Assembly: GCF_030013595.1 (NCBI RefSeq)
Contig: NZ_CP122768.1
Reading direction: 5' to 3' (one strand)
DNA length: 64,000 nucleotides
Source of the DNA: Escherichia coli
GTDB taxonomy: Bacteria > Pseudomonadota > Gammaproteobacteria > Enterobacterales > Enterobacteriaceae
A program made the position numbers and the translations under genes. Positions 21,121 through 31,503 of this stretch are shown here, in pieces. The notes under the pieces are model-generated. The model was not told the origin of the DNA. It saw only the letters and a program-made list of their open reading frames with translations, and did no database searches. Every line of letters begins with the position of its first letter. The first letter of the stretch is position 1.

Positions 21121-22080
21121 ATGAAGTGGCTTTTATTAATCACCTTGAGTCTATATTCTTTTATTGTGCAAAGTGCTCCCTGTGCAGTGACCAATGTCGG
21201 TGAACAACGTGGAACATATATACTCAAGCCACTGAGTATGAAAGGTAATCTAACCACCGAAAAAATTGAAAACACCGGGAATATCATTGAGTGTGCAGAC
21301 TTGCAAGAGACGACCAACGCCATTAAAGTTCATTTTTTAACACAGAACGCTTTAAGGTTTAAAGTCGGAAGTCGTCATTACATTATTAATTTCCCCTTTG
21401 AATCTGACGGTAAAAAAATAGAGCTTCCAGGGAAGTTATCTTATAATTTAGAAGAAATGCTATCTGCGATAAATTTCACCATTCCATATTCTATCGCATC
21501 TGTATCAGATAGTTCTAACACCGCAGACATTTTTCCAGGAACTCCTTTTCCTTTGTTGTTCGAAATTGAAGTGAGTTCATGTACAGGGAATAATACTAAT
21601 TGTAATAGCGTCCGCTTTAATTTTAATTTAAATACTATTTTACAGGTAAATTTAATGACCTGTGGTTTTGAAGATCAATCCATCGACACTGGACGATTTG
21701 TACTGTCTCGTATCAATAATGAAAATTATCAGTTTCATCATATAAGATTTGACTGTATCCAGGGTGAGCAAGGTGAATTAGTTTTTGAACCTAGTGATGT
21801 TGAATATTACTTTGAGCCAGTGACGATACAGGATTCAGGAACCAGCATATTAAAAAATGATTTAGAAAACAGTGAGGACGGTGCGGGTCAAATAGGCTTT
21901 CAACTCTCCAATGATGGTACGCATGAAATGCAGTATGGTAAAAGCAATTACTACTCTTTTCAGCATCCCCATGAAGGAAGTAATCAGATTCCTCTATTTA
22001 TTCGCCCGCGTACATATGGAAATAATGTCTCAAGCGGGCAAATAATGAGCCGAGTCAAAATCGTGGTAATGTACAACTAA
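21121..22080 (+). CDS. putative fimbrial tip adhesin / minor subunit
   Basis: 319 aa. RBS AAGGAG. Signal peptide MKWLLLITLSLYSFIVQSA. Last gene of the chaperone-usher cluster, with the size and two-domain length typical of adhesins. Homology cannot be verified here. Confidence 0.6.
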   Translation: MKWLLLITLSLYSFIVQSAPCAVTNVGEQRGTYILKPLSMKGNLTTEKIENTGNIIECADLQETTNAIKVHFLTQNALRFKVGSRHYIINFPFESDGKKIELPGKLSYNLEEMLSAINFTIPYSIASVSDSSNTADIFPGTPFPLLFEIEVSSCTGNNTNCNSVRFNFNLNTILQVNLMTCGFEDQSIDTGRFVLSRINNENYQFHHIRFDCIQGEQGELVFEPSDVEYYFEPVTIQDSGTSILKNDLENSEDGAGQIGFQLSNDGTHEMQYGKSNYYSFQHPHEGSNQIPLFIRPRTYGNNVSSGQIMSRVKIVVMYN

Positions 22081-22117: not shown

Positions 22118-23023
22118 TTAACGTGCCGCTGGGCTAAAAAGCGCAGAATAATCCGTATTGCAGATTCGCTGTACCGCCGGGTGCTGAATCATCCGCTCAG
22201 CAAAAATAGCATGGTACTCTTCCATCACATTTTCGACGCGACCAATTTCTACGACAGTTTTATCGGCATAAAAGTCATATGCATAAAGCGTTGGGGCAAC
22301 GAAGATTGCATTGTGCATCGCACCAAAAGCTTTCATCAACGCGGCATCATCAAACTCGCCGAGGATTTCTACGTTTAATCCCTGGGAGTTAAACCAGTTA
22401 AGCAATTTGCGCCCTAACATTGAACGTCGCCCAGGAATCAAAAGCCGCCGTTCTTCCAGACAAGCCGGGAACGGTTTTTCCGGTGGTGGATTTGTACACC
22501 AGAAACTCACGCCACATTCGCCAATTCTCACGGAGAACAGACCTTCCTGCTGCGTAGAATCTATCGGACAGTCGGAAATGATCATATCCAGTTTATGCTG
22601 ACTTAATTGCTCCAGCAGCATTTCGTGGGTGGATTCGAAGCAGCGAAGATGAATCGGCTCGCCTTCTACCACTGCGGCGTTAAGTACGCTACTGACCAGG
22701 CGTTTAGAAAGTGCATCAGCCACGCCAACGTCAAACAATAAATTGGATTCTTTGCGATAGTTCACGATATCCAGCATTTCCTGGCTTAAGGTGAACATTT
22801 TATCGGCATAGCGATAGACCAGCTCTCCCAGCTCGCTGGGCTCGAGGCCACGTCCCTTGCGCTTAAATAATTTGCCTTGCAGGCGCTCTTCCAGCGCCCG
22901 AATCTGTCCGGTAATGGTTTGTGGTGTCAAATAAAGCGCCTCCGCTGCGCCAACCACGGAACCTTCTTTATAGACATGCCAGAAGTAATACAAGTGGTTG
23001 TAATTGATATGAGACATGCTCAT
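22118..23023 (-). CDS. nhaR: LysR-type activator of nhaA
   Basis: An internal Met gives [41 protein letters not shown]..., 301 aa. LysR HTH. Downstream of nhaA. Confidence 0.95.
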
Positions 23024-23082
23024 TTCTCTCCCTGATAACAATGAAAAGGGAGCCGTTTATGGCTCCCCGGTAAACCGTCCTG

Positions 23083-24249
23083 TCAAACTGATGGACGCAA
23101 ACGAACGCGTAACCAGCTGTATCCAATTACCGCCGAAGAGATAGAACCGACCAGGATACCGAGTTTCGCCCAGTTAATCAGTTCTGGATCTACGCTACCA
23201 AAGGCCAGGCTGGCAATAAAGATAGACATAGTAAAACCGATACCGCACAGGATCCCCACCGCCATAATTTGCTGATAAGTCGTTCCCTCAGGCAGATGCG
23301 CCAGTTTCAAACGCAGCGCCAACCAGCAGAACAGACTAATCCCCAGCGGTTTGCCAATCAGCAAGCCAGCGATGATCCCCAATGGCAGAATGGAGGTCAA
23401 GCCATCCAGCGTGACGCCTTGCAGTGAAACGCCAGCATTAGCAAATGCAAACAGCGGTAAAATCAGATACGCCACCCACGGGTGCAACACATGCTCCAGT
23501 CGCTTCGCTGGAGAACGCCCATGCTTCTCTTTCAAAGGAATAAAGAAGCCGACAATTACCCCCGCCAGGGTTGCGTGAACCCCCGATTTCAACACCGCAG
23601 TCCACAACACCACGCCAACCAGAATATAGACGCCCGTGCGGCGTACACCACACAGATTCAATACCGCGAGTACCGCAATTGCTACAGCCGCGACACCAAG
23701 AGAGGCCATCGATAAGTCATTAGTGTAGAACAATGCGATGATAATGATGGCCCCAAGATCGTCGATAATAGCCAGAGCCATCAAAAAGATCTTCAGCGCT
23801 AACGGAACACGACTTCCCAACAGCGCCAGCACACCAAGTGCAAAAGCAATGTCAGTAGCCGCCGGGATCGCCCACCCTTCGCGGGTAATCGGATCGGCAT
23901 GGTTAAAGGCCAGATAGAGTAATGCCGGCACAATCATCCCACCAATAGCGGCGATAACTGGAAATGCAGCCTGGCGTAAGCTGGCTAGCGATCCTTGCAT
24001 CAGTTCACGTTTAACTTCCAGACCGACTAACAGGAAAAATACCGCCATCAGCGCGTCATTTATCCATAACAGCATGTTTTTGTTGATTTCGAGTGAACCA
24101 ACCCGGAGCTGAACCGGCGTCTCCAGAAAGTCGTGATACCATCCACTGGTTGCGCCGCTGTTGGCCATAATCATCGCCAGGATAGCGGCAATGATAAGAA
24201 TAATGCCTCCCGAGGCATCACTGCTAAAGAATCGATGCAGATGTTTCAC
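23083..24249 (-). CDS. nhaA: Na+/H+ antiporter NhaA
   Basis: 388-aa polytopic ORF (GTG start) [31 protein letters not shown].... Confidence 0.96.
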
Positions 24250-24500
24250 TTTTTATTTCTCTTTCAGGTGAATAGATCGTTTTTACTATTTTACCCCGCA
24301 CGAATCATCGTTAAAATCAGATTATAGTGTAGGAATAATTCGCTTTTTACGATCCATTGAAGGATTTGCGTCATCAGTGATGAGATGAGTTTTTGACGGC
24401 TGTAAGCGCTGACGTGTGACCCTAAGCCCTGATAATCATAGCTTAAGGTCAGGATTTCTGAGGGATTAATTAGGAAAAGTAATAATAAAATCGCACTGTG

Positions 24501-25781
24501 CTATAGCTGTTTATTCCAGAGATGCTTGAAAATATCTAATGTTGAGACAACATTGGCAGGCGACATTCGGTTTAATGAGGGTAGAAAGGGATGAGCCTCC
24601 AGGAAGTTGATAAAACGAGTCGCGCTTGCCAACGTCGAATACCGCATTTCATTTGCTTTCTTGTTTCCTGTAAGGTTACAAACAGCCATTGAATAATCAC
24701 GGGCGGAAAATGCACGCCAGACATTATTTCTCACGCCACCACTCAAAAATAACCGCGGCGGCGTATCATAATGAGTCGTTTTCTCGCCGCGTTCTTTCAC
24801 AAAGGAAATATGGCACCGGCCTTGATGAATATGCTGTAAATTAGCCATCAGACAACCGCCTAATATAAAGCACTCGTGATCAAGGTAGTGTTGAATATTT
24901 ATAGAATATGCTTCAGTCAGTGCTCTAACCAGTTCAAAATGGCGATACGCCGGAAGAACCGGTTTCACCAGCATCCCCGGATCGTTTTGATGTAATATCG
25001 CCCGACCATAATCAATATCAAATAAGGTATCACGCCGCATAGTAAGTAACTCCTTGCGTTGTACGTGATGCGCCAGTGTACCTGGAGACAAACGCTCTTC
25101 ATAACTTGATGCATATTGATAATGCGACTCTACCGCTGATGAAGAATAATTTGTTGAAATAGCGACGACTCTACCGCTTTGTTCTTCTGCGGTAACAAGA
25201 CTATAAAGATAGTTGTTACTACAGTTAAACTTTACGCGAAAAGCGCGGGTAGATAGAGAAATATCAGAAGCAGAAGAGTACTGGCAACTTTCTTTATAGT
25301 TTACTTCCCGGGCTAGTTTCATCAACTCACGGTTAAGCCCTGTGCTATTAAGAAGTAATAATTTACGGATATCTGCAAGTGAAGCGCCTTGATCAATCAT
25401 CAATGCTAAATGTGTTCTTCGCGGCGTTGTATTTACATGATCCAGAGTGATAAAAGTTCTGGAACAATGATGACAATACATTCTCCTCTGCCCCTGAGCT
25501 GAATAGCCATACTTTTTCAGAGATGTGCTTCCGCAAGCTGAACATTGTGGAACCAACCCTCTCCATGAATGATTAACACGATTACGATAAATATTAAGAG
25601 ATCGTTCAGATATCACAGGAAACAAGTAACCGCATTCCCGACATAAAATATTTTTGCCTTGTGCAATATAATCCTGGCTATTCAACAACCCCAGGTTTTT
25701 GCATCCTGGTGTTTTGCAACAATCAACATTTACGTTGGTAAACATATTCACTCCCTGCGAATACCCGGATATTATCGTCAT
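24501..25781 (-). CDS. uncharacterised protein: two N-terminal zinc ribbons plus HTH resembling IS1 InsA, fused to a ~250-aa C-terminal domain with transposase-like (RNase H fold) remnants
   Basis: 426-aa ORF. The start is more likely Met13 at 25745 (GGGAG 5 nt upstream), giving 414 aa. CSACGSTSLKKYGYSAQGQRRMYCHHCSRTF...LALMIDQGASLADIRKLL parallels IS1 InsA [32 protein letters not shown]...IIDMAMNGVGCRATARIM. LYSLVTAEEQSGRVVAISTN, LFDIDYG and TEAYSINIQHYL line up loosely with the InsB D..D..E segments. Confidence 0.6.
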   Translation of the reverse strand: MTIISGYSQGVNMFTNVNVDCCKTPGCKNLGLLNSQDYIAQGKNILCRECGYLFPVISERSLNIYRNRVNHSWRGLVPQCSACGSTSLKKYGYSAQGQRRMYCHHCSRTFITLDHVNTTPRRTHLALMIDQGASLADIRKLLLLNSTGLNRELMKLAREVNYKESCQYSSASDISLSTRAFRVKFNCSNNYLYSLVTAEEQSGRVVAISTNYSSSAVESHYQYASSYEERLSPGTLAHHVQRKELLTMRRDTLFDIDYGRAILHQNDPGMLVKPVLPAYRHFELVRALTEAYSINIQHYLDHECFILGGCLMANLQHIHQGRCHISFVKERGEKTTHYDTPPRLFLSGGVRNNVWRAFSARDYSMAVCNLTGNKKANEMRYSTLASATRFINFLEAHPFLPSLNRMSPANVVSTLDIFKHLWNKQL

Positions 25782-25797
25782 ATGTCAAAGAAAAGAA

Positions 25798-25826
25798 CCT
25801 GATTCAATGTGTAACATTGAATCAGG
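25798..25826 (-). terminator. perfect 13-bp stem / 3-nt loop hairpin followed by a T-rich run, downstream of the sulfatase gene
   Basis: cctgattcaatgt-gta-acattgaatcagg. On the minus strand it is followed by TTCTTTTCTTT, between the sulfatase stop (25875) and the next ORF. Confidence 0.6.
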
Positions 25827-25874
25827 CGGGCATGGCCCTGAAAGGCATACATTACATTTATTATGGTTATCAGA

Positions 25875-27368
25875 TTAGCCCCAGGTTACCGCTTCCGGTT
25901 TATCACCTCTGGCTTTCATTAATGAATCATTATCAATATCGGCTTTATACTTTAAGAACTTACCATACATTTGTTTTTCAATGTCTGGATTTTTACCTAT
26001 CTGATTAATGGTCTCAAAACGATCGGTTTTGAGGTTGTATAGATACTTTGGCTTATTGTTACGATCGATGATCATTTTCCAGTCACCATCACGTATCGCC
26101 CATTCGTCGGTTGGATCATCCTGGAATGGCATGTCAATTCCGAAGATTAATGGCTTTTCACGTTTTAGCGCCTTGTTCTCAAGGACAGGAACCAACGATT
26201 CGCCATCAAAAGTCCGGTCCGTCGGTAATTTGAAGTTCATCATTTTCGCCAGCGTAGGCATCCAGTCCAGACCATAAACAGGCGTATCTGAAACCATTCC
26301 CTTTGGAAGATGCTTTCCGTATTTAATAATCGCCGGAACACGGATGCCGCCTTCCCAGAGATTATCCTTGCGACCACGTAATCCATCAGTTTCCCCTGCC
26401 AAATTCAGTTCATAAACTTTACGTGCTTCACGGGTTACTGGGCCGTTATCACTGGTAAAAATAACGATGGTGTTATCTTCTTCACCCATCGCTTTGATTT
26501 TATCCAGTACTTTTCCAACCTGAGCATCCAGATAACTGATGTTGGCATAATATTCTCCTGGACCACGCCAGGGTTTATCCGCCCAGTCGCCATAAAATAA
26601 ATCAGGATGCTGCTTCTGATATTCGCTCATATATTGTGAGTACATGTCGAGGTATTTTTTGGGCGAAGCCAGGGGACTGTGCACTTCGGTAAAAGCGACA
26701 TAAAGGAAGAAAGGCTTACTGTCCTTTTTGTTATCCAACCAGTTGACGACTTCCGAACTGACATACTCACCACTCATTTTATCGGCACGAGGTGTGGGTT
26801 GCCCGTTACGCAACCAGCCCGTTGGATAGACCATGCCAAAACGGGGACGCTCCTTCGCATTATCCAGAGTAGCGTCGGTAACAAAACCCGCCGTATTAAC
26901 CAGTGAGTAATCAAAGCCCATATCTTTTGCCTGCGGCTGATCGGTGCGATCGCCGCCTGCATTCAGATGCAGCTTACCCATCATGGCCGTGTCGTACCCT
27001 TGCGCTTTGAGTAGATTAGCAATCGTGAGTTCATTACGCCCTAATGCCACATCTTTTCCCGTTGGGATCCATGAGCGTATGCCGGTACGAAATGGCATCC
27101 GCCCCGTTAATAACCCCGCCCGCGAAGGAGAACTTAAGGGAGCTGGTGCATAGTAGTCAGTAAATTTGACGCCCTCCTGGGCAAGCCTGTCAATATTGGG
27201 GGTTTTAACGATCTGATGTCCATATGTTGCTAAATCACCATAGCCTAAATCATCCGCCATAATGATGACTAAATTGGGTTGTTTAGTCTCGGCAGCTACG
27301 ACTGGATTAAAAGCATTCCCTGTGCAAACTGCAAGGCCGATCAAACTGGCCATTAATGTTTTCTGCAT
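25875..27368 (-). CDS. periplasmic sulfatase, Ser-type (S-x-P-x-R) formylglycine motif
   Basis: Start at Met13 of the listed ORF (RBS AGGGA) gives 497 aa. Signal peptide MQKTLMASLIGLAVCTGNAFNPVVAA. Sulfatase signatures NLVIIMADDLGYGD and PLSSPSRAGLLTGR, then GKLHL, FTSDNGP. Confidence 0.85.
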   Translation of the reverse strand: MQKTLMASLIGLAVCTGNAFNPVVAAETKQPNLVIIMADDLGYGDLATYGHQIVKTPNIDRLAQEGVKFTDYYAPAPLSSPSRAGLLTGRMPFRTGIRSWIPTGKDVALGRNELTIANLLKAQGYDTAMMGKLHLNAGGDRTDQPQAKDMGFDYSLVNTAGFVTDATLDNAKERPRFGMVYPTGWLRNGQPTPRADKMSGEYVSSEVVNWLDNKKDSKPFFLYVAFTEVHSPLASPKKYLDMYSQYMSEYQKQHPDLFYGDWADKPWRGPGEYYANISYLDAQVGKVLDKIKAMGEEDNTIVIFTSDNGPVTREARKVYELNLAGETDGLRGRKDNLWEGGIRVPAIIKYGKHLPKGMVSDTPVYGLDWMPTLAKMMNFKLPTDRTFDGESLVPVLENKALKREKPLIFGIDMPFQDDPTDEWAIRDGDWKMIIDRNNKPKYLYNLKTDRFETINQIGKNPDIEKQMYGKFLKYKADIDNDSLMKARGDKPEAVTWG

Positions 27369-27387
27369 AATTATTCCCTGATGAAAA

Positions 27388-28149
27388 TTAGAAATCATAA
27401 CCAAGCATATAAATCATTTGATCGCCAAAACCATCGTAGCCCAACTTATTATCGAAATAACGCCACGTCACACTGGCTTTCCAGCGAGGATAGAACTTCC
27501 AGGCCACTGTTAAACCGCCATTTAGCCCATTCCGACCAAATTGTTGTTCCGCATAGGCATCATTTCTGTCCAGTTCTATTTCATTCCAGTTAGATAAAAC
27601 AAATTTTTCGTCAAATAACGTAAAAGGTAATACTGCTGTCCAGCCAACAACATAACCATTCCAGCCATTTGTTTGTCCATATTTGGCTGAGACGTAGTCT
27701 CCAGATTGATTATGTAATCCAATATACGGTTTAAAAAACCCCCATGAACCATTCCTGCCGAGGTAGCCCAAACCATAAAACATATCAAGATCGTCACCCC
27801 ATGAGTTATCCCATTGACCATAGATCTTGCCAAAGAAAGTCATATTGGAGTCAAAGAGTCTGACATGTGTCATAGCAGAAACGGTATGATTACGCCCCGC
27901 TACGGCATGGTTAAGCACATTGCTTTCATAAAATGAGTAAAACTCGGCTTCTTTAAAATTCACACCAAAGTCCGCAGTCACTTTCCATACTTCACCACGA
28001 TGAGTGTTAACGAAGCCACTATTCCAGTCAGCATAACCTGCATTTATTGAGCCAAAGGAACCTTTATATTCTAATGAAGAATATGCAGGAAGGTGATAGA
28101 AAATCGTTGTCAGGGCACACGCAATAAGAAGCCGTCTTTTGGCAGACAT
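27388..28149 (-). CDS. Tsx/OmpK-family outer-membrane channel
   Basis: 253 aa. Signal peptide. Aromatic-rich alternating beta-strand pattern. WNGYVVGW...FKPY motifs resemble Tsx/OmpK. C-terminal beta-signal ...MLGYDF. Sits 19 nt upstream of the sulfatase gene on the same strand. Confidence 0.65.
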   Translation of the reverse strand: MSAKRRLLIACALTTIFYHLPAYSSLEYKGSFGSINAGYADWNSGFVNTHRGEVWKVTADFGVNFKEAEFYSFYESNVLNHAVAGRNHTVSAMTHVRLFDSNMTFFGKIYGQWDNSWGDDLDMFYGLGYLGRNGSWGFFKPYIGLHNQSGDYVSAKYGQTNGWNGYVVGWTAVLPFTLFDEKFVLSNWNEIELDRNDAYAEQQFGRNGLNGGLTVAWKFYPRWKASVTWRYFDNKLGYDGFGDQMIYMLGYDF

Positions 28150-28665
28150 ATAATATGAATATGCTCTCCATTCATTGTTTTTATGGTTCCATAGAAATCA
28201 ATACATCAGATAATTCATTTTGATTAAGAACGACTCAGAAAGTATATTTAAAGGTGAATGGCAAAGCGTGATGGAGATCGCAGATTACTTTTACCCCCGG
28301 GTGTGGAGGTATCGTGTTTCAAAAAGTGTGTCTATTTTAAATATCACTCATTGATTTATAGACATTTTTTCCTTATAAAAAAACACTAAATTCTGTACAA
28401 GAATTATTTTGTATCTTCTACTACTTTCTCCAGTAATAACTCACCTTTCAGGCATAACTTAAATCTGCTTGTTCATAATCTCAATTTTTGTAAATGAAAA
28501 GGCACATAAGAGTTAAAATAAACAATGATCTAAAGATTAATTACGCAAAAATGCGAGGCGTCTTCAGGATTAGAATCGATAAAACAGAATGGGTTAAAGA
28601 GAGCGATATAATAGCGGCGGGTGCTTGAGGCTGTCTGTCTCAGGCATTAGCTGAACGGCAGATAG

Positions 28666-28720
28666 AGAAAAGCCCCGAGTGATATTTTACTATCAACCCG
28701 AGGCCCCCTATATGCAGAAC
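28666..28720 (-). ncRNA. sokC: Sok-type antisense RNA of the hokC locus
   Basis: Antisense to the mokC start. The minus-strand sequence GUUCUGCAUAUAGGGGGCCUCGGGUUGAUAGUAAAAUAUCACUCGGGGCUUUUCUC has a 5' single-stranded tail, a long stem-loop (CCUCGGG-U-UGAUA / UAUCA-CUCGGGG) and a U-tail. Coordinates were transferred from my recollection of the K-12 annotation. Confidence 0.6.
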
Positions 28721-28921
28721 ACATGTAGAGTGCCTCTTACTGACCGTAAGGTCAAGGAGAAGAGAGCAATGAAGCAGCATAAGGCGATGATTGTCGCCCT
28801 GATCGTCATCTGTATCACCGCCGTAGTGGCGGCGCTGGTAACGAGAAAAGACCTCTGTGAGGTTCACATCCGAACTGGCCAGACGGAGGTTGCTGTTTTC
28901 ACGGCTTACGAATCCGAGTAA
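28712..28921 (+). CDS. mokC: regulatory overlapping reading frame of hokC (mok)
   Basis: MQNTCRVPLTDRKVKEKRAMKQHK... is in frame with and encompasses hokC, as in hok/mok/sok loci. Confidence 0.7.
   Translation: MQNTCRVPLTDRKVKEKRAMKQHKAMIVALIVICITAVVAALVTRKDLCEVHIRTGQTEVAVFTAYESE
28769..28921 (+). CDS. hokC: Hok-family small membrane toxin
   Basis: 50 aa: MKQHKAMIVALIVICITAVVAALVTRKDLCEVHIRTGQTEVAVFTAYESE. Single TM plus the conserved Hok C-terminus. Confidence 0.9.
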   Translation: MKQHKAMIVALIVICITAVVAALVTRKDLCEVHIRTGQTEVAVFTAYESE

Positions 28922-28943
28922 GAGCAACGGCGGGGAGTGATCC

Positions 28944-30281
28944 CATAAGCGCTAACTTAAGGGTTGAACCATCTGAAGAATGCGACGCCTCGGTGCCTCG
29001 TTAAGACGATGCCTCGCGTTCTTCAATTGCGTTTTGTAGGCTGTCAGGGATACTGTCCCACGAATGGCCACCTGTAAGCTCCAGATGACCATTTTTGTTA
29101 TTCTCCACAACGAGTTAGTTCTTCTTTTCGGATCCGGCACTTCTGGGGGGAAATCCAGCGATGGCTGGATTATGTCGTCAATTAAAAATGCGGCGAGTAG
29201 ATTAGCAAATATCCACGCTTTCGCGAGTTCAGGTTCCTTTGCACGCAAAGCATCCAGGTGCAGCAAACTTTTGAGCCGCTTAAAAGCCAGTTCAATTTGC
29301 CATCGCAGACGGTAACAATCAGCCACTTGCTCTGCTGAATATTCATCTTCCGGTAATGATGTTAGCAATAGCACATGGCCCGCTGCTTCCAGCGTTTCCG
29401 CCTGAACTACTCGTCCTTTTCGACGATTCTCGCTGAGCAGTCGGGTTTTACTGATTAATGCTTTTTCGGGAGGAAGTGATACGGCAATGAGACGTGCCGG
29501 AAAGGGAGCTCCGGCTTTTTTATTACCTGAATTGCCTATCATTACAGTGGTTTCACCGTTCTTACCGCAATCCAGCCCGCGCAGAAAACCCATCATGTCA
29601 AAGCGCATTCCTTCTGCAGTTAACCAGCGCAATCCTCGCCAGTGAACCCGGACGATATAATCAGCTTCTCCAAAAGCAAGTGAGCGGATACATTCGGGAC
29701 GCGAACCGAATCCCCGGTCAGCAATGCGTATCTCGTCTGCCGTTTGCGCAAATCGGTCCAGCCGTTCAGCGTCTCTGCTGTCGGTTAGCTCAAAATCAGT
29801 GAACTGACAGGTATGAGGATCATATCCCATATGTAGTCGCCATTCAGCGCTGCCGCCCCCGGGCGCACTGATTGCTGTTCCATCGACAAGACGCAATCTC
29901 TTTCCGCTTGTACAACCCGTAACTGCGGCGCGTACAGCAAGTGTTTGTGCGGCAAGTATGCCAAACCAGTCGGCGGCATTCCGCAGCCGCTTCAGGAGAG
30001 CCACGTCAGATAATGTTGCAACGTCATGGAGCTGAGCCCATGCAGTGACTTCACGTAATGACATCCCCCCGGGGCCGTAAGCCAGCCCCAGACGTAGCAG
30101 AGTTGCAGCATCACGAATTTCGCGGCGGCGGGTTAGAGCCCCGGCATTACGTGCCGAAGTATCCAGTTCTTCGGGCTTACCAATATGGGCCAGAATTGCT
30201 GACCAGTTATCGTGAGAGTAATTCATCGGCACGTTAAATCATATCAGGCGTAATACCACAACCCTTAAGTTAGCGCTTATG
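28944..30281 (-). mobile_element. IS186 (IS4 family), 1338 bp, flanked by a 10-bp target-site duplication
   Basis: Perfect 23-bp terminal inverted repeats CATAAGCGCTAACTTAAGGGTTG (28944..28966, and reverse complement at 30259..30281). Direct repeats GGAGTGATCC at 28934..28943 and 30282..30291. Confidence 0.95.
28952..30232 (-). CDS. insL: IS186 transposase (DDE, IS4 family); long form ending inside the terminal repeat
   Basis: (MP)MNYSHDNWSAILAHIGKPEELDTSARNAG.... Y-2-R-3-E-6-K motif present (YRLRWQIELAFKRLK). The K-12-equivalent start is the MNYS Met at 30226. The TAG stop lies within the IR. Confidence 0.9.
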   Translation of the reverse strand: MPMNYSHDNWSAILAHIGKPEELDTSARNAGALTRRREIRDAATLLRLGLAYGPGGMSLREVTAWAQLHDVATLSDVALLKRLRNAADWFGILAAQTLAVRAAVTGCTSGKRLRLVDGTAISAPGGGSAEWRLHMGYDPHTCQFTDFELTDSRDAERLDRFAQTADEIRIADRGFGSRPECIRSLAFGEADYIVRVHWRGLRWLTAEGMRFDMMGFLRGLDCGKNGETTVMIGNSGNKKAGAPFPARLIAVSLPPEKALISKTRLLSENRRKGRVVQAETLEAAGHVLLLTSLPEDEYSAEQVADCYRLRWQIELAFKRLKSLLHLDALRAKEPELAKAWIFANLLAAFLIDDIIQPSLDFPPEVPDPKRRTNSLWRITKMVIWSLQVAIRGTVSLTAYKTQLKNARHRLNEAPRRRILQMVQPLS

Positions 30282-30343
30282 GGAGTGATCCCCGCCACTT
30301 TACAGGTGCTCGCATATCTTCAACGCACCCTATTTTTACCCAG

Positions 30344-30365
30344 GCCTGCCCACGGGCAGGCTTTT
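30344..30365. terminator. hairpin between the hokC 3' region and the dnaJ stop (bidirectional terminator-like)
   Basis: gcctgcc-cacg-ggcaggc followed by tttt on the plus strand. It lies 8 nt beyond the dnaJ stop on the minus strand. Confidence 0.6.
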
Positions 30366-30372
30366 GGGGAGG

Positions 30373-31503
30373 TTAGCGGGTCAGGTCGTCAAAAAACTTC
30401 TTCACACCATCAAAGAAGCTCTTTGAGCGCGGGCTGTTGTGCTCGCCGGTTGGGCCACCGAAGCTTTCTTGCAGCTCTTGCAGCAGCTGTTTCTGCTTCT
30501 CGTTCAGGCCTACCGGTGTTTCGACGACAACGCGGCACAGCAAATCACCCTGTGCGCCACCGCGGACAGACTTGACGCCTTTACCGCGCATACGGAACAG
30601 CTTACCGGTCTGGGTTTCGCCAGGCACTTTCAGTTTGACGCGACCATCAAGGGTCGGTACTTCGATTTCGCCACCCAGCGCCGCCATAGCGAAGTTGATC
30701 GGGACTTCGCAATAGAGGTTGTTGCCTTCACGCTCGAAAATCGGGTGCTGTTTAACCTGAACCTGAACGTACAGATCGCCTGCCGGTGCGCCATGCTCGC
30801 CCGCTTCACCTTCGCCCGCAAGACGGATGCGGTCTCCAGTGTCCACCCCTGCCGGGATTTTAACGGACAGCGTTTTGCTGCGCTCAACACGACCATGACC
30901 ATGACATTTGTTGCACGGATCTTTGATCAGCGTACCCCGGCCCTGACAGTGTGGACAGGTCTGCTGCACGGCAAAGAAACCCTGGCGCATCTGCACCTGA
31001 CCAGAACCATGACAGGTCGGACAGGTCTGCGGCTGTGTACCTGGTTTTGCACCGCTACCGTGGCAAACGTCACACTCCTCCAGAGTCGGAATGCGGATCT
31101 CTTTGGTCACGCCACGTACAGCTTCTTCGAGGGTGAGCTCCATGTTATAGCGTAAATCAGCACCGCGCGCCGCACGTTGACGACCACGTCCGCCGCCAAA
31201 AATATCGCCGAAAACGTCACCAAAAATATCGCTGAAGTCTGCGCCGCCGCCGAAACCGCCGCCGCCCATGCCACCTTGCTCAAACGCAGCATGACCATAC
31301 TGATCGTATGCCGCACGTTTTTGCGAGTCGGTCAGAACTTCATAAGCTTCCTTGATCTCTTTAAATTTCGCCTCGGCCTCTTTATCACCCTGGTTACGGT
31401 CCGGGTGGTATTTCATGGCCAGGCGTTTGTAGGCCTTTTTGATTTCACGCTCTTCCGCTGTTTTGGAAACGCCTAAAATCTCGTAATAATCTTGCTTAGC
31501 CAT
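30373..31503 (-). CDS. dnaJ: Hsp40 co-chaperone DnaJ
   Basis: An internal Met gives [40 protein letters not shown]..., 376 aa. J domain HPD, G/F region and four CxxCxGxG zinc motifs. Confidence 0.97.

Follow-up and report, generated by a model that had tools for sequence, protein, structure and literature searches.

Relative to K-12, the E. coli chromosome analyzed here has extra DNA between nhaA and hokC that encodes a putative outer-membrane channel, a sulfatase, and a Zn-ribbon protein. Is this DNA an insertion, or is it an old locus that K-12 has lost, and how could its sulfatase be activated when no maturase is encoded beside it? We addressed these questions in a 64,000-nucleotide stretch of contig NZ_CP122768.1 (the window). 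The reading toward which we lean is that the block represents an ancestral dnaJ–nhaA cassette in its Escherichia version, that its sulfatase has retained its function and is matured in trans, and that most E. coli deleted the block.

Anatomy of the block

Homology to the K-12 locus (blastn) was lost at 24489/24490 and returned at 28538/28539, which leaves 4,049 bp of extra DNA in between. K-12 has 112 bp unrelated to the block at this site, and the net length difference between the window and K-12 from nhaA to hokC is about 3.9 kb. An earlier sequence-only reading had this net size right, but its borders (24300–28250) were about 200–300 bp off on each side. The AT-richness that it noted is borne out by the composition, with a GC content of 41.8% in the block compared to 51.6% in nhaA, 55.0% in dnaJ, and 50.1% in the whole window. 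The features of the block are as follows, all on the minus strand:

24490..28538, (-), block without K-12 counterpart (blastn against the K-12 locus; 4,049 bp, GC 41.8%)
24501..25745, (-), Zn-ribbon protein, 414 aa, probably a regulator (domains: two Zn ribbons, HTH, and an RNase-H-like one resembling DDE transposases)
25787..25850, (-), conserved element 3' of the sulfatase gene: GTATGCC..GGGC-nnn-GCCC followed by a terminator with a 14-bp hairpin and a U tract (terminator scan)
25875..27368, (-), S1 sulfatase of the formylglycine type, periplasmic, 497 aa, with the Ser-type motif S79-S-P-S-R (Pfam PF00884)
27388..28149, (-), Tsx/OmpK-family outer-membrane channel, 253 aa (Pfam Channel_Tsx)
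28241..28333, (-), putative conserved upstream control region (phylogenetic footprint, 9 genera and one paralogous cassette)
28333-28314, (-), 19-nt conserved block, operator-like, part of the upstream control region
28282-28267, (-), CRP-like palindrome TGCGA-N6-TCACG, part of the upstream control region
28246-28241, (-), -10-like TATACT, part of the upstream control region

The block contains three intact ORFs in the same orientation, encoding the channel, a signal-peptide S1 sulfatase, and the 414-aa Zn-ribbon protein. They lie where the sequence-only reading had placed them (27388–28149; 25875–27368, after a 19-nt gap; and 24501–25781). For the Zn-ribbon gene, a start at 25745 (414 aa) is backed by homologue alignment and RefSeq; the ORF could begin at 25781. 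As had also been read, block 24490–28538 of the window holds no maturase, inner-membrane transporter, or classical regulator gene.

Profile searches placed all three proteins above cut-off in the families first proposed for them. The sulfatase matched Pfam Sulfatase (PF00884) at 199.3 bits (cut-off 25) over residues 31–378 and, weakly, Pfam Phosphodiest; it is ~96% identical to PDB 3ED4, an unpublished crystal structure named “arylsulfatase.” The remaining catalytic residues of S1 enzymes seem, on reading through the sequence, to be in place. The channel, 77–84% identical to its orthologues in other genera, matched Channel_Tsx at 53.9 bits (gathering cut-off 27.2), with the alignment covering only residues 104–253, the C-terminal 150. 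RefSeq names it “outer membrane protein OmpK,” and its 121.9 bits against NCBIfam PRK11528 (YfeN) fall under the cut-off of 282, short of equivalence to YfeN. It had no sequence-level match to any solved structure in the PDB, including that of Tsx. The Zn-ribbon protein matched the IS1/IS1595 Zn-binding domain at 31.8 bits (cut-off 28).

Distribution and synteny

The block was found in 1,281 of 5,426 complete E. coli genomes (~24%), in agreement with the suggestion that it is strain-variable. Each carrier has one chromosomal copy, never plasmid-borne, and three CDS were annotated in every block-carrying genome sampled. The block has been kept in extraintestinal-pathogenic B2 lineages (ST131, ST95) and phylogroup F and is gone from K-12-like strains. 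Since about 76% of complete E. coli genomes have lost it, it is dispensable.

The dnaJ–nhaA site holds the same genes in the same order in at least 10 Enterobacteriaceae genera, among them Salmonella, Citrobacter, Klebsiella, Kluyvera, Kosakonia, Yokenella, Phytobacter, and Pseudescherichia, and also in other Escherichia species. The fullest common cassette has four genes, in the order tsx-like, Sec-exported S1 sulfatase, anaerobic sulfatase maturase (anSME), and Zn-ribbon protein, and in several genera arylsulfotransferase genes flank it. An intact four-gene cassette also occurs at two other chromosomal sites, where the Zn-ribbon proteins are 36–41% identical. Because the block fills the same dnaJ–nhaA site across genera, K-12 represents the derived, deleted state, and the idea of an insertion into a K-12-like layout finds no support. 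We conclude from this synteny that the block is an old Enterobacteriaceae cassette, deleted since then by most E. coli. The channel and sulfatase genes remain 19–28 nt apart across genera, and this pairing, together with the recurrence of the cassette at other sites, strengthens the earlier proposal that the two would act as one functional module.

Maturase loss and the Cys-to-Ser substitution

In most orthologous loci of other genera, the sulfatase gene has a radical SAM/SPASM maturase gene as its neighbor, as in a sulfatase–anSME operon, and this gene encodes a true anSME (TIGR03942, 534 bits versus a cut-off of 349). It is missing from block 24490–28538 and from all eight Escherichia loci examined. 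Escherichia retains both the terminator that lay upstream of it and the Zn-gene leader TATTCGCAGGGAGTGAAT that lay downstream, which shows that the gene was cleanly excised.

The sulfatase has the [C/S]-x-P-x-R maturation motif (PMC5066984), in the form S79-S-P-S-R in the window and all Escherichia loci and C-S-P-S-R in other genera. The nucleophile position is Ser (AGT) in 8/8 Escherichia loci. Among the 25 loci of other genera with a readable motif, 24 have Cys there (25/25 by protein alignment; the codon, TGT, was read in three). Eight substitutions are fixed between Escherichia and the other genera, and only C79S falls at a position that is invariant in the latter. These comparisons indicate that the maturase was lost secondarily and specifically in Escherichia, a loss coupled to the Cys-to-Ser change at the catalytic position. 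Within Escherichia, the dN/dS of the sulfatase is 0.023–0.048, comparable to that of nhaA (0.014–0.057); thus, the enzyme is under strong purifying selection despite the Cys-to-Ser change and the loss of the maturase. The corresponding values are 0.04–0.05 for diverged allele pairs of the channel and ~0.10–0.15 in most comparisons of the Zn-ribbon protein.

According to PMC5066984, 21% of S1 sulfatases have a Ser nucleophile, and the organisms that encode these are nearly all anaerobes, facultative or strict. K-12 itself has a sulfatase that is naturally of the Ser type, YdeN (SGPSR), encoded next to the anSME YdeM, which is 44.5% identical to the cassette maturase and was found in 5,334 of 5,426 E. 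coli genomes. Because the cassette sulfatase is still under strong purifying selection, we propose YdeM or AslB as the anSME that matures it in trans. Benjdia et al. (2007) reportedly saw no maturation of Ser-type sulfatases by E. coli in the conditions they used; in that case, maturation in trans is not assured.

The Zn-ribbon protein

The Zn-ribbon protein has the fold of a DDE transposase with an HTH, including the RNase-H-like core and the N-terminal Zn ribbon. In an alignment, not a structural superposition, of 43 members at <45% identity, one column (E291) is always D/E, one more is acidic in 81%, and the first strand has no conserved acid; with a single universally acidic column, the family has no conserved DDE triad. 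The marks of a mobile element (inverted repeats, several copies, variable sites) are likewise missing: no terminal inverted repeats were found flanking the gene, which is single copy at a fixed site in 1,281 genomes and has the same cassette position across genera and in relocated cassettes. What had seemed an unrelated-looking protein is by this conservation an integral cassette member and probably the cassette's regulator.

Distant relatives are encoded divergently from deoB-deoD-nucleoside transporter operons, and others are divergent from a 5'-nucleotidase gene or adjoin an anSME gene; the lineages behind the three nucleoside-operon contexts may be related to one another. We tentatively suggest, as an idea that is rather doubtful at present, that the family consists of undescribed transposase-derived, catalytically dead transcription factors of Gammaproteobacteria controlling nucleoside/nucleotide scavenging genes (deoBD, nupC/G, 5'-nucleotidase, Tsx) and the sulfatase cassette. 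If this were true, the cassette substrate would be a sulfated nucleoside-like or planar aryl compound, and Escherichia would have rewired sulfatase activation from Cys and a dedicated maturase to Ser and a shared one.

Putative control elements

The 3' element after the sulfatase is kept in all genera, with compensatory changes in 10 of 18 pairs (RNAalifold), and had no match in Rfam. By motif resemblance, the conserved upstream region would be a promoter with a CRP site; a generic promoter scan gave no enrichment over shuffles.

Alternative explanations

Could the block instead be an accessory island that some E. coli lineages acquired horizontally, by insertion between nhaA and hokC? Its low GC content (41.8%) and its presence in only 24% of genomes are in keeping with acquisition, as are its two alleles, which differ by ~19% in the Zn-ribbon gene, with the B2 allele closest to E. 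whittamii. This allele split itself points to exchange between Escherichia species. Set against these are the same site and gene order in at least 10 genera, the invariably single chromosomal copy, and the 112 bp of unrelated filler in K-12 where an empty target site would be expected. The block ORFs include no integrase and the block no tRNA gene, its borders have no convincing flanking repeats beyond a 15-nt imperfect one, and the site is not empty in related genera. We therefore consider an island improbable. An ordinary, possibly active IS transposase lying beside the sulfatase by chance is more improbable still, to the point that we give it very little credence, since the Zn-ribbon gene occurs once per genome at its fixed site, holds its cassette position even after relocation, has neither inverted repeats nor a DDE triad, and is under purifying selection.

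A block that has no function in E. coli and is decaying toward loss would fit the lost maturase, the replaced catalytic Cys, the deletion of the block in most strains, the truncation of some Zn-ribbon protein clusters (P0050, P0210), and the partial match to the channel gene in the E. albertii type strain. However, the ORFs are intact in the window and annotated in every sampled carrier, dN/dS stays at 0.02–0.15 over divergences as deep as the Escherichia species splits, and the promoter and terminator elements are conserved, making decay a poor explanation. An unlikely account, though one with more to recommend it, is that the Escherichia sulfatase is no longer a formylglycine enzyme. Its Ser would then act without modification, like that of alkaline phosphatase, for example on phosphates or phosphodiesters, or the protein would merely bind a ligand. 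In favor are the fixation of C79S in every Escherichia locus, coincident with maturase loss; the weak Phosphodiest match; the membership of the family in the alkaline-phosphatase superfamily, whose catalytic promiscuity is well known (PMC9063841); and the linkage of the regulator's relatives to genes for nucleotides and nucleosides. Against it, the SxPxR maturation motif is intact, lineage-specific substitutions number only eight, the remaining catalytic residues seem preserved on inspection, and Ser-type sulfatases are common in facultative anaerobes, E. coli having the Ser-type pair YdeN/YdeM.

Model and relation to known systems

Our preferred reading, a cassette with a working sulfatase matured in trans, builds on the anatomy, synteny, polarity of the maturase deletion, Cys-to-Ser change, selection estimates, and Zn-ribbon fold established by the analysis, whereas its regulation, its substrate class, and the maturation of its sulfatase in trans are inferred. 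The channel and sulfatase genes would be driven from a promoter that has a CRP-like site together with the operator-like block, and the terminator past the sulfatase would let only part of transcription reach the maturase gene (where present) and the regulator gene. Most likely, a small sulfated compound, probably planar (aryl- or nucleoside-like), would enter the periplasm via the channel and be desulfated there by the sulfatase. In the Escherichia ancestor, the maturase gene was cleanly excised and the formylglycine precursor changed from Cys to Ser, leaving a Ser-type sulfatase that YdeM or AslB would mature; the whole block was later deleted in most E. coli.

Sulfatase–maturase pairs are already known. 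Klebsiella atsBA and E. coli ydeNM and aslAB, like the cassette, encode a periplasmic S1 [C/S]xPxR sulfatase beside a radical SAM/SPASM maturase, but in the cassette these are preceded directly by a gene for a dedicated Tsx-family channel and followed by one for a transposase-derived Zn-ribbon/HTH protein, and its Escherichia form is without any maturase gene. Its sulfatase is only about 25% identical to YdeN. The channel shares the Channel_Tsx family and a size of ~250 aa with the E. coli Tsx nucleoside channel, Vibrio OmpK, and E. coli YfeN, although it scores below the YfeN equivalog cut-off (121.9 versus 282). Compared to IS256/Mutator-type DDE transposases (ISCth4, PDB 6XG8) and the Zn-ribbon N-termini of IS1/IS1595, the Zn-ribbon protein lacks a conserved DDE triad and inverted-repeat ends, and its gene, single copy in fixed synteny under purifying selection, behaves as a host gene. 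Bacteroides polysaccharide-utilisation loci combine an outer-membrane import device, periplasmic sulfatases, and one radical SAM maturase (anSME). The cassette follows the same logic with a small passive Tsx-type barrel in place of the TonB-dependent SusC/D pair, and its lack of glycoside hydrolases indicates a small-molecule substrate rather than a polysaccharide. Literature searches turned up no Tsx-family channel paired with a sulfatase, no conserved cassette with a dedicated Tsx-type channel and a transposase-derived regulator, and no published functional characterisation of this one, in line with the first impression that no characterised system has this composition.

Because the block is kept in B2 (ST131, ST95) and F and lost in K-12-like strains, it may help these strains to exploit sulfated metabolites that the host supplies in the gut or urinary tract. 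The Cys-to-Ser change and loss of the cognate maturase, under strong purifying selection, make Escherichia a natural test case for the activation of formylglycine enzymes in trans and for whether YdeM and AslB, whose E. coli substrates are unsettled, serve more than the neighbouring sulfatase. The Zn-ribbon family, for its part, would clearly exemplify, in bacteria, the recruitment of a DDE transposase to regulate host genes.

A conserved locus between dnaJ and nhaA

The window carries the E. coli chromosome in reverse orientation, in the order nhaR, nhaA, three ORFs, sokC/mokC-hokC, IS186, and dnaJ.

Annotated features of the locus (window coordinates)
22118-23041, minus strand: nhaR
23083-24249, minus strand: nhaA
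24501-25745, co-oriented with the next two ORFs: Zn-ribbon protein gene (414 aa; start backed by an alignment of 37 homologues)
25875-27368: sulfatase gene (497 aa; Pfam Sulfatase, 199 bits)
27388-28149: Tsx/OmpK-family channel gene (253 aa; Pfam Channel_Tsx, 53.9 bits versus a cut-off of 27.2)
28619-28771: sok, belonging to sokC/mokC-hokC (Rfam, 118.8 bits)

Sequence comparison with K-12 showed that homology ends at 24489 and restarts at 28539, with 4,049 bp in the window (the block) versus 112 unrelated AT-rich bp in K-12. The sequence-only reading was thus right that there is extra DNA relative to K-12, with borders 200-300 bp from the true ones. The GC content is 41.8% in the block versus 50.1% for the window. 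The sulfatase ORF begins 19 nt past the channel-gene stop, and both proteins are predicted, by eye, to start with a hydrophobic segment typical of Sec signal peptides. An Rfam scan found no family in the block (the sole match was sok, outside it at 28619-28771), and PADLOC gave no match for the three block proteins.

Of 5,426 complete E. coli genomes, 1,271-1,281 carry the block in full or to at least 80%, always as one chromosomal copy. Carriers include EC958, NU14, APEC O18, and SMS-3-5, which belong to phylogroup B2 (ST131 and ST95) and phylogroup F. Homologues of the Zn-ribbon protein at 53-97% identity were found only in Enterobacteriaceae, and their loci are syntenic. A scan of one genome per species yielded 23 loci, which we mapped by tblastn. 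Kosakonia, Yokenella, Phytobacter, and Pseudescherichia share the order dnaJ / tsx-like, sulfatase, radical SAM/SPASM, Zn-ribbon / nhaA, and the identical four-gene arrangement occurs in a Kluyvera MAG, Citrobacter pasteurii, and an Enterobacteriaceae MAG. The radical SAM protein of this four-gene cassette is a bona fide anaerobic sulfatase maturase, or anSME (TIGR03942, 512-534 bits; cut-off 349). The cassette also occupies two further chromosomal sites, in Scandinavium and in one metagenome contig, where the Zn-ribbon protein is 36-41% identical. Because synteny between dnaJ and nhaA extends across genera and the cassette recurs at two other sites, we conclude that the four genes travel and persist as a unit. 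These comparisons indicate that the location is old and that K-12 is in a derived, deleted state. The insertion proposed from sequence alone was not borne out, since the site is shared across genera and the block is ancestral. We found neither an integrase nor a tRNA gene in the block, its flanks show no convincing repeats, and the 112-bp K-12 filler matched none of the loci compared. An imperfect 15-nt direct repeat at both borders (24464-24478, GATTAATTAGGAAAA; 28535-28549, GATTAATTACGCAAA) is probably due to chance, although it could have guided deletion of the block.

The locus is rearranged in Salmonella and the Citrobacter freundii group, where a different, inverted Tsx paralogue is paired with a UshA-like 5'-nucleotidase and two AssT-type arylsulfotransferases are present. 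The 5'-nucleotidase-like neighbor in Salmonella (locus L004, 4168-5730) scored 158 bits to a SoxB thiosulfohydrolase model, under its cut-off, and its substrate need not be a nucleotide. An Atlantibacter MAG (L031) has no sulfatase or maturase but retains the Zn-ribbon gene, next to a divergent Tsx-5'-nucleotidase pair and a gene for an arylsulfotransferase.

Comparison of window 24501-28149 with loci L002, L039, L040, L010, L011, and L012 revealed two deep allelic lineages of the block within E. coli. The window/SMS-3-5-type allele is near that of Escherichia sp. MOD1-EC7003, and the B2-type allele (EC958, NU14) shares 95.6-97.4% identity with that of E. whittamii. The Zn-ribbon gene is about 81% identical between the two types, the same distance as between E. 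coli and E. albertii. The NU14 block is mosaic, combining a window-type channel gene with a B2-type Zn-ribbon gene. The nhaA gene has also diverged unusually (92-95%) compared to dnaJ (98%). This pattern suggests interspecies introgression within Escherichia or a long-lived polymorphism. As in K-12, and at the identical site, IS186 separates hokC from dnaJ (window 28952-30232, and 28539-31000 at 99.3% identity over 2,466 bp) and is absent from HCP5S3_I2, the nearest genome with the block. Downstream of nhaR is a 319-aa fimbrial-adhesin-like ORF (21121-22080); in the closest genome, this gene closes a chaperone-usher operon in which both the chaperone and the usher are annotated as pseudogenes, and K-12 retains only a 138-bp fragment, adjoining IS1.

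Maturase loss and a Cys-to-Ser switch in Escherichia

By tblastn mapping, the maturase is absent from all examined Escherichia loci (E. coli of both allele types, E. whittamii, E. albertii, and Escherichia sp. MOD1-EC7003). The spacer between the sulfatase and Zn-ribbon genes retains the conserved terminator that elsewhere precedes the maturase, and also the leader TATTCGCAGGGAGTGAAT, found downstream of the maturase in Salmonella and Citrobacter, a pattern that shows clean excision of the maturase gene. The maturase is missing from Klebsiella, Kluyvera intermedia, and Phytobacter massiliensis as well, with spacers of differing length that suggest independent losses.

The formylglycine position is Ser (AGT; SSPSR) in 8/8 Escherichia loci and Cys (CSPSR) in all 25 loci from other genera, with TGT as the codon in the three of these where it was read. 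Just eight fixed Escherichia residues depart from the one common to at least 90% of other genera; C79S is the sole one at a site invariant among those genera. Within Escherichia, dN/dS is 0.023-0.048 for the sulfatase (dS 0.07-0.86), comparable to nhaA (0.014-0.057), 0.04-0.05 for the channel (diverged allele pairs), and about 0.10-0.15 in most comparisons for the Zn-ribbon protein. The sulfatase is thus under strong purifying selection despite C79S, and the low dN/dS in all three genes led us to reject the idea that the block is a decaying remnant. The channel gene of the E. albertii type strain, NBRC 107761, gave only a partial tblastn match (L012, 7573-8001) and may be a pseudogene.

What a conserved sulfatase does with Ser at this position can be read in two ways. 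Ser is the nucleophile in 21% of S1 sulfatases and is normal in facultative anaerobes (PMC5066984). K-12 itself encodes a Ser-type sulfatase, YdeN (SGPSR), which adjoins the anSME YdeM; YdeM shares 44.5% identity with the cassette maturase and was found in 98% of E. coli genomes. We favor a reading in which the Escherichia enzyme has turned into a Ser-type sulfatase that would be activated in trans by YdeM or AslB. Alternatively, the protein may use Ser without modification, in a phosphoesterase-like role or as a binding protein.

Putative control elements

Three blocks with constant spacing lie upstream of the channel gene and are conserved in nine genera, and a further non-coding element follows the sulfatase gene.

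Conserved non-coding elements (window coordinates)
28333-28314, minus strand: 19-nt block AAACAACATTTTCTGACAC, conserved in nine genera
28282-28267, minus strand: CRP-like palindrome TGCGA-N6-TCACG, E. coli form
28246-28241, minus strand: -10-like hexamer TATACT
25787-25850, minus strand: conserved element immediately downstream of the sulfatase stop, seen in every genus

The palindrome reads TGTGA-N8-TCACA in most genera and TGTGA-N6-TCACA in the Scandinavium paralogue, which shares the N6 spacer with E. coli. The hexamer puts the palindrome center near -41, and the region looks like a class II, CRP-dependent promoter that has an operator upstream. A generic promoter scan gave no enrichment over shuffled sequences.

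The element after the sulfatase consists of the motif GTATGCCACTTAGGGC-nnn-GCCC (invariant GTATGCC..GGGCnnnGCCC), a long covarying terminator hairpin (18 pairs, 10 of them with compensatory changes), and a U tract; Rfam gave no match for it. Possible roles are a regulated attenuator and a 3'-UTR-derived small RNA, and, from its conservation, we also considered a riboswitch or small RNA for the terminator-linked motif. In loci that have a maturase gene, the gene begins within about 10-20 nt of the U tract, so that the maturase and regulator genes are probably expressed by read-through. Such read-through would keep channel and sulfatase levels high and maturase and regulator levels low.

A transposase-derived protein as probable regulator

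AlphaFold (AF2) modeling of the Zn-ribbon protein from close homologues alone gave a poor result (pLDDT 55). When 1.8 billion representative proteins were searched with a profile, 310 relatives were recovered, some full-length at 20-40% identity, and adding distant relatives to the alignment raised the model to pLDDT 86.4 and pTM 0.89. Two 4-Cys ribbons occupy the N-terminus, and the second fits the models for the N-terminal Zn domains of IS1/IS1595 and IS256. Among 43 family members under 45% identity, we found no conserved catalytic triad; E291 is the only column that is acidic throughout, and the first strand has no such column. Given the missing triad and a single-copy, syntenic gene without inverted-repeat ends, we conclude that the protein is a domesticated transposase, and it is probably catalytically dead. 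In other searches, profile A3 against PDB sequences gave only generic Zn-finger and HTH noise, PHROGs a single weak transposase match, and a metagenome-collection scan with a narrower alignment of distant relatives no match.

Neighbors of distant relatives (20-27% identity; loci L033, L034, L035, L043, and L042) bear on its role. Three relatives at 20-24% identity, from Gilliamella and two metagenome contigs, are divergent from deoB-deoD-nucleoside-transporter operons, with differing other flanks; another is divergent from a 5'-nucleotidase gene, and yet another has an adjacent anSME gene. The likely role of the Zn-ribbon protein is transcriptional regulation, and its distant relatives look like an unrecognized regulator family.

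Novelty and probable substrate class

The individual parts are all of known kinds (S1 sulfatase, anSME, Tsx-family barrel, transposase fold). Literature searches found no account of the four-part combination, of an Escherichia-specific Cys-to-Ser switch with maturase loss, or of a transposase-derived regulator family, and those on the Salmonella locus tags, 3ED4, and Tsx with sulfatase turned up no functional work. Among solved structures, the best match to the sulfatase, at about 96% identity, is 3ED4, a PDB entry from structural genomics that is unpublished; the next-best solved relatives (human steryl-sulfatase, GalNAc-6-sulfatases, and arylsulfatase A; E about 1e-50) do not fix its substrate.

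The sequence-only reading had proposed a module for uptake and desulfation. The conserved channel-sulfatase pairing supports this, as do the periplasmic sulfatase, the small Tsx-type barrel, and the absence of glycoside hydrolases, and the same features point to a small-molecule substrate. Two context signals point to a planar substrate: the AssT arylsulfotransferase genes that recur as cassette neighbors suggest an aryl sulfate, and the Tsx and 5'-nucleotidase genes, together with the nucleoside operons of the regulator family, suggest a nucleoside-like molecule.
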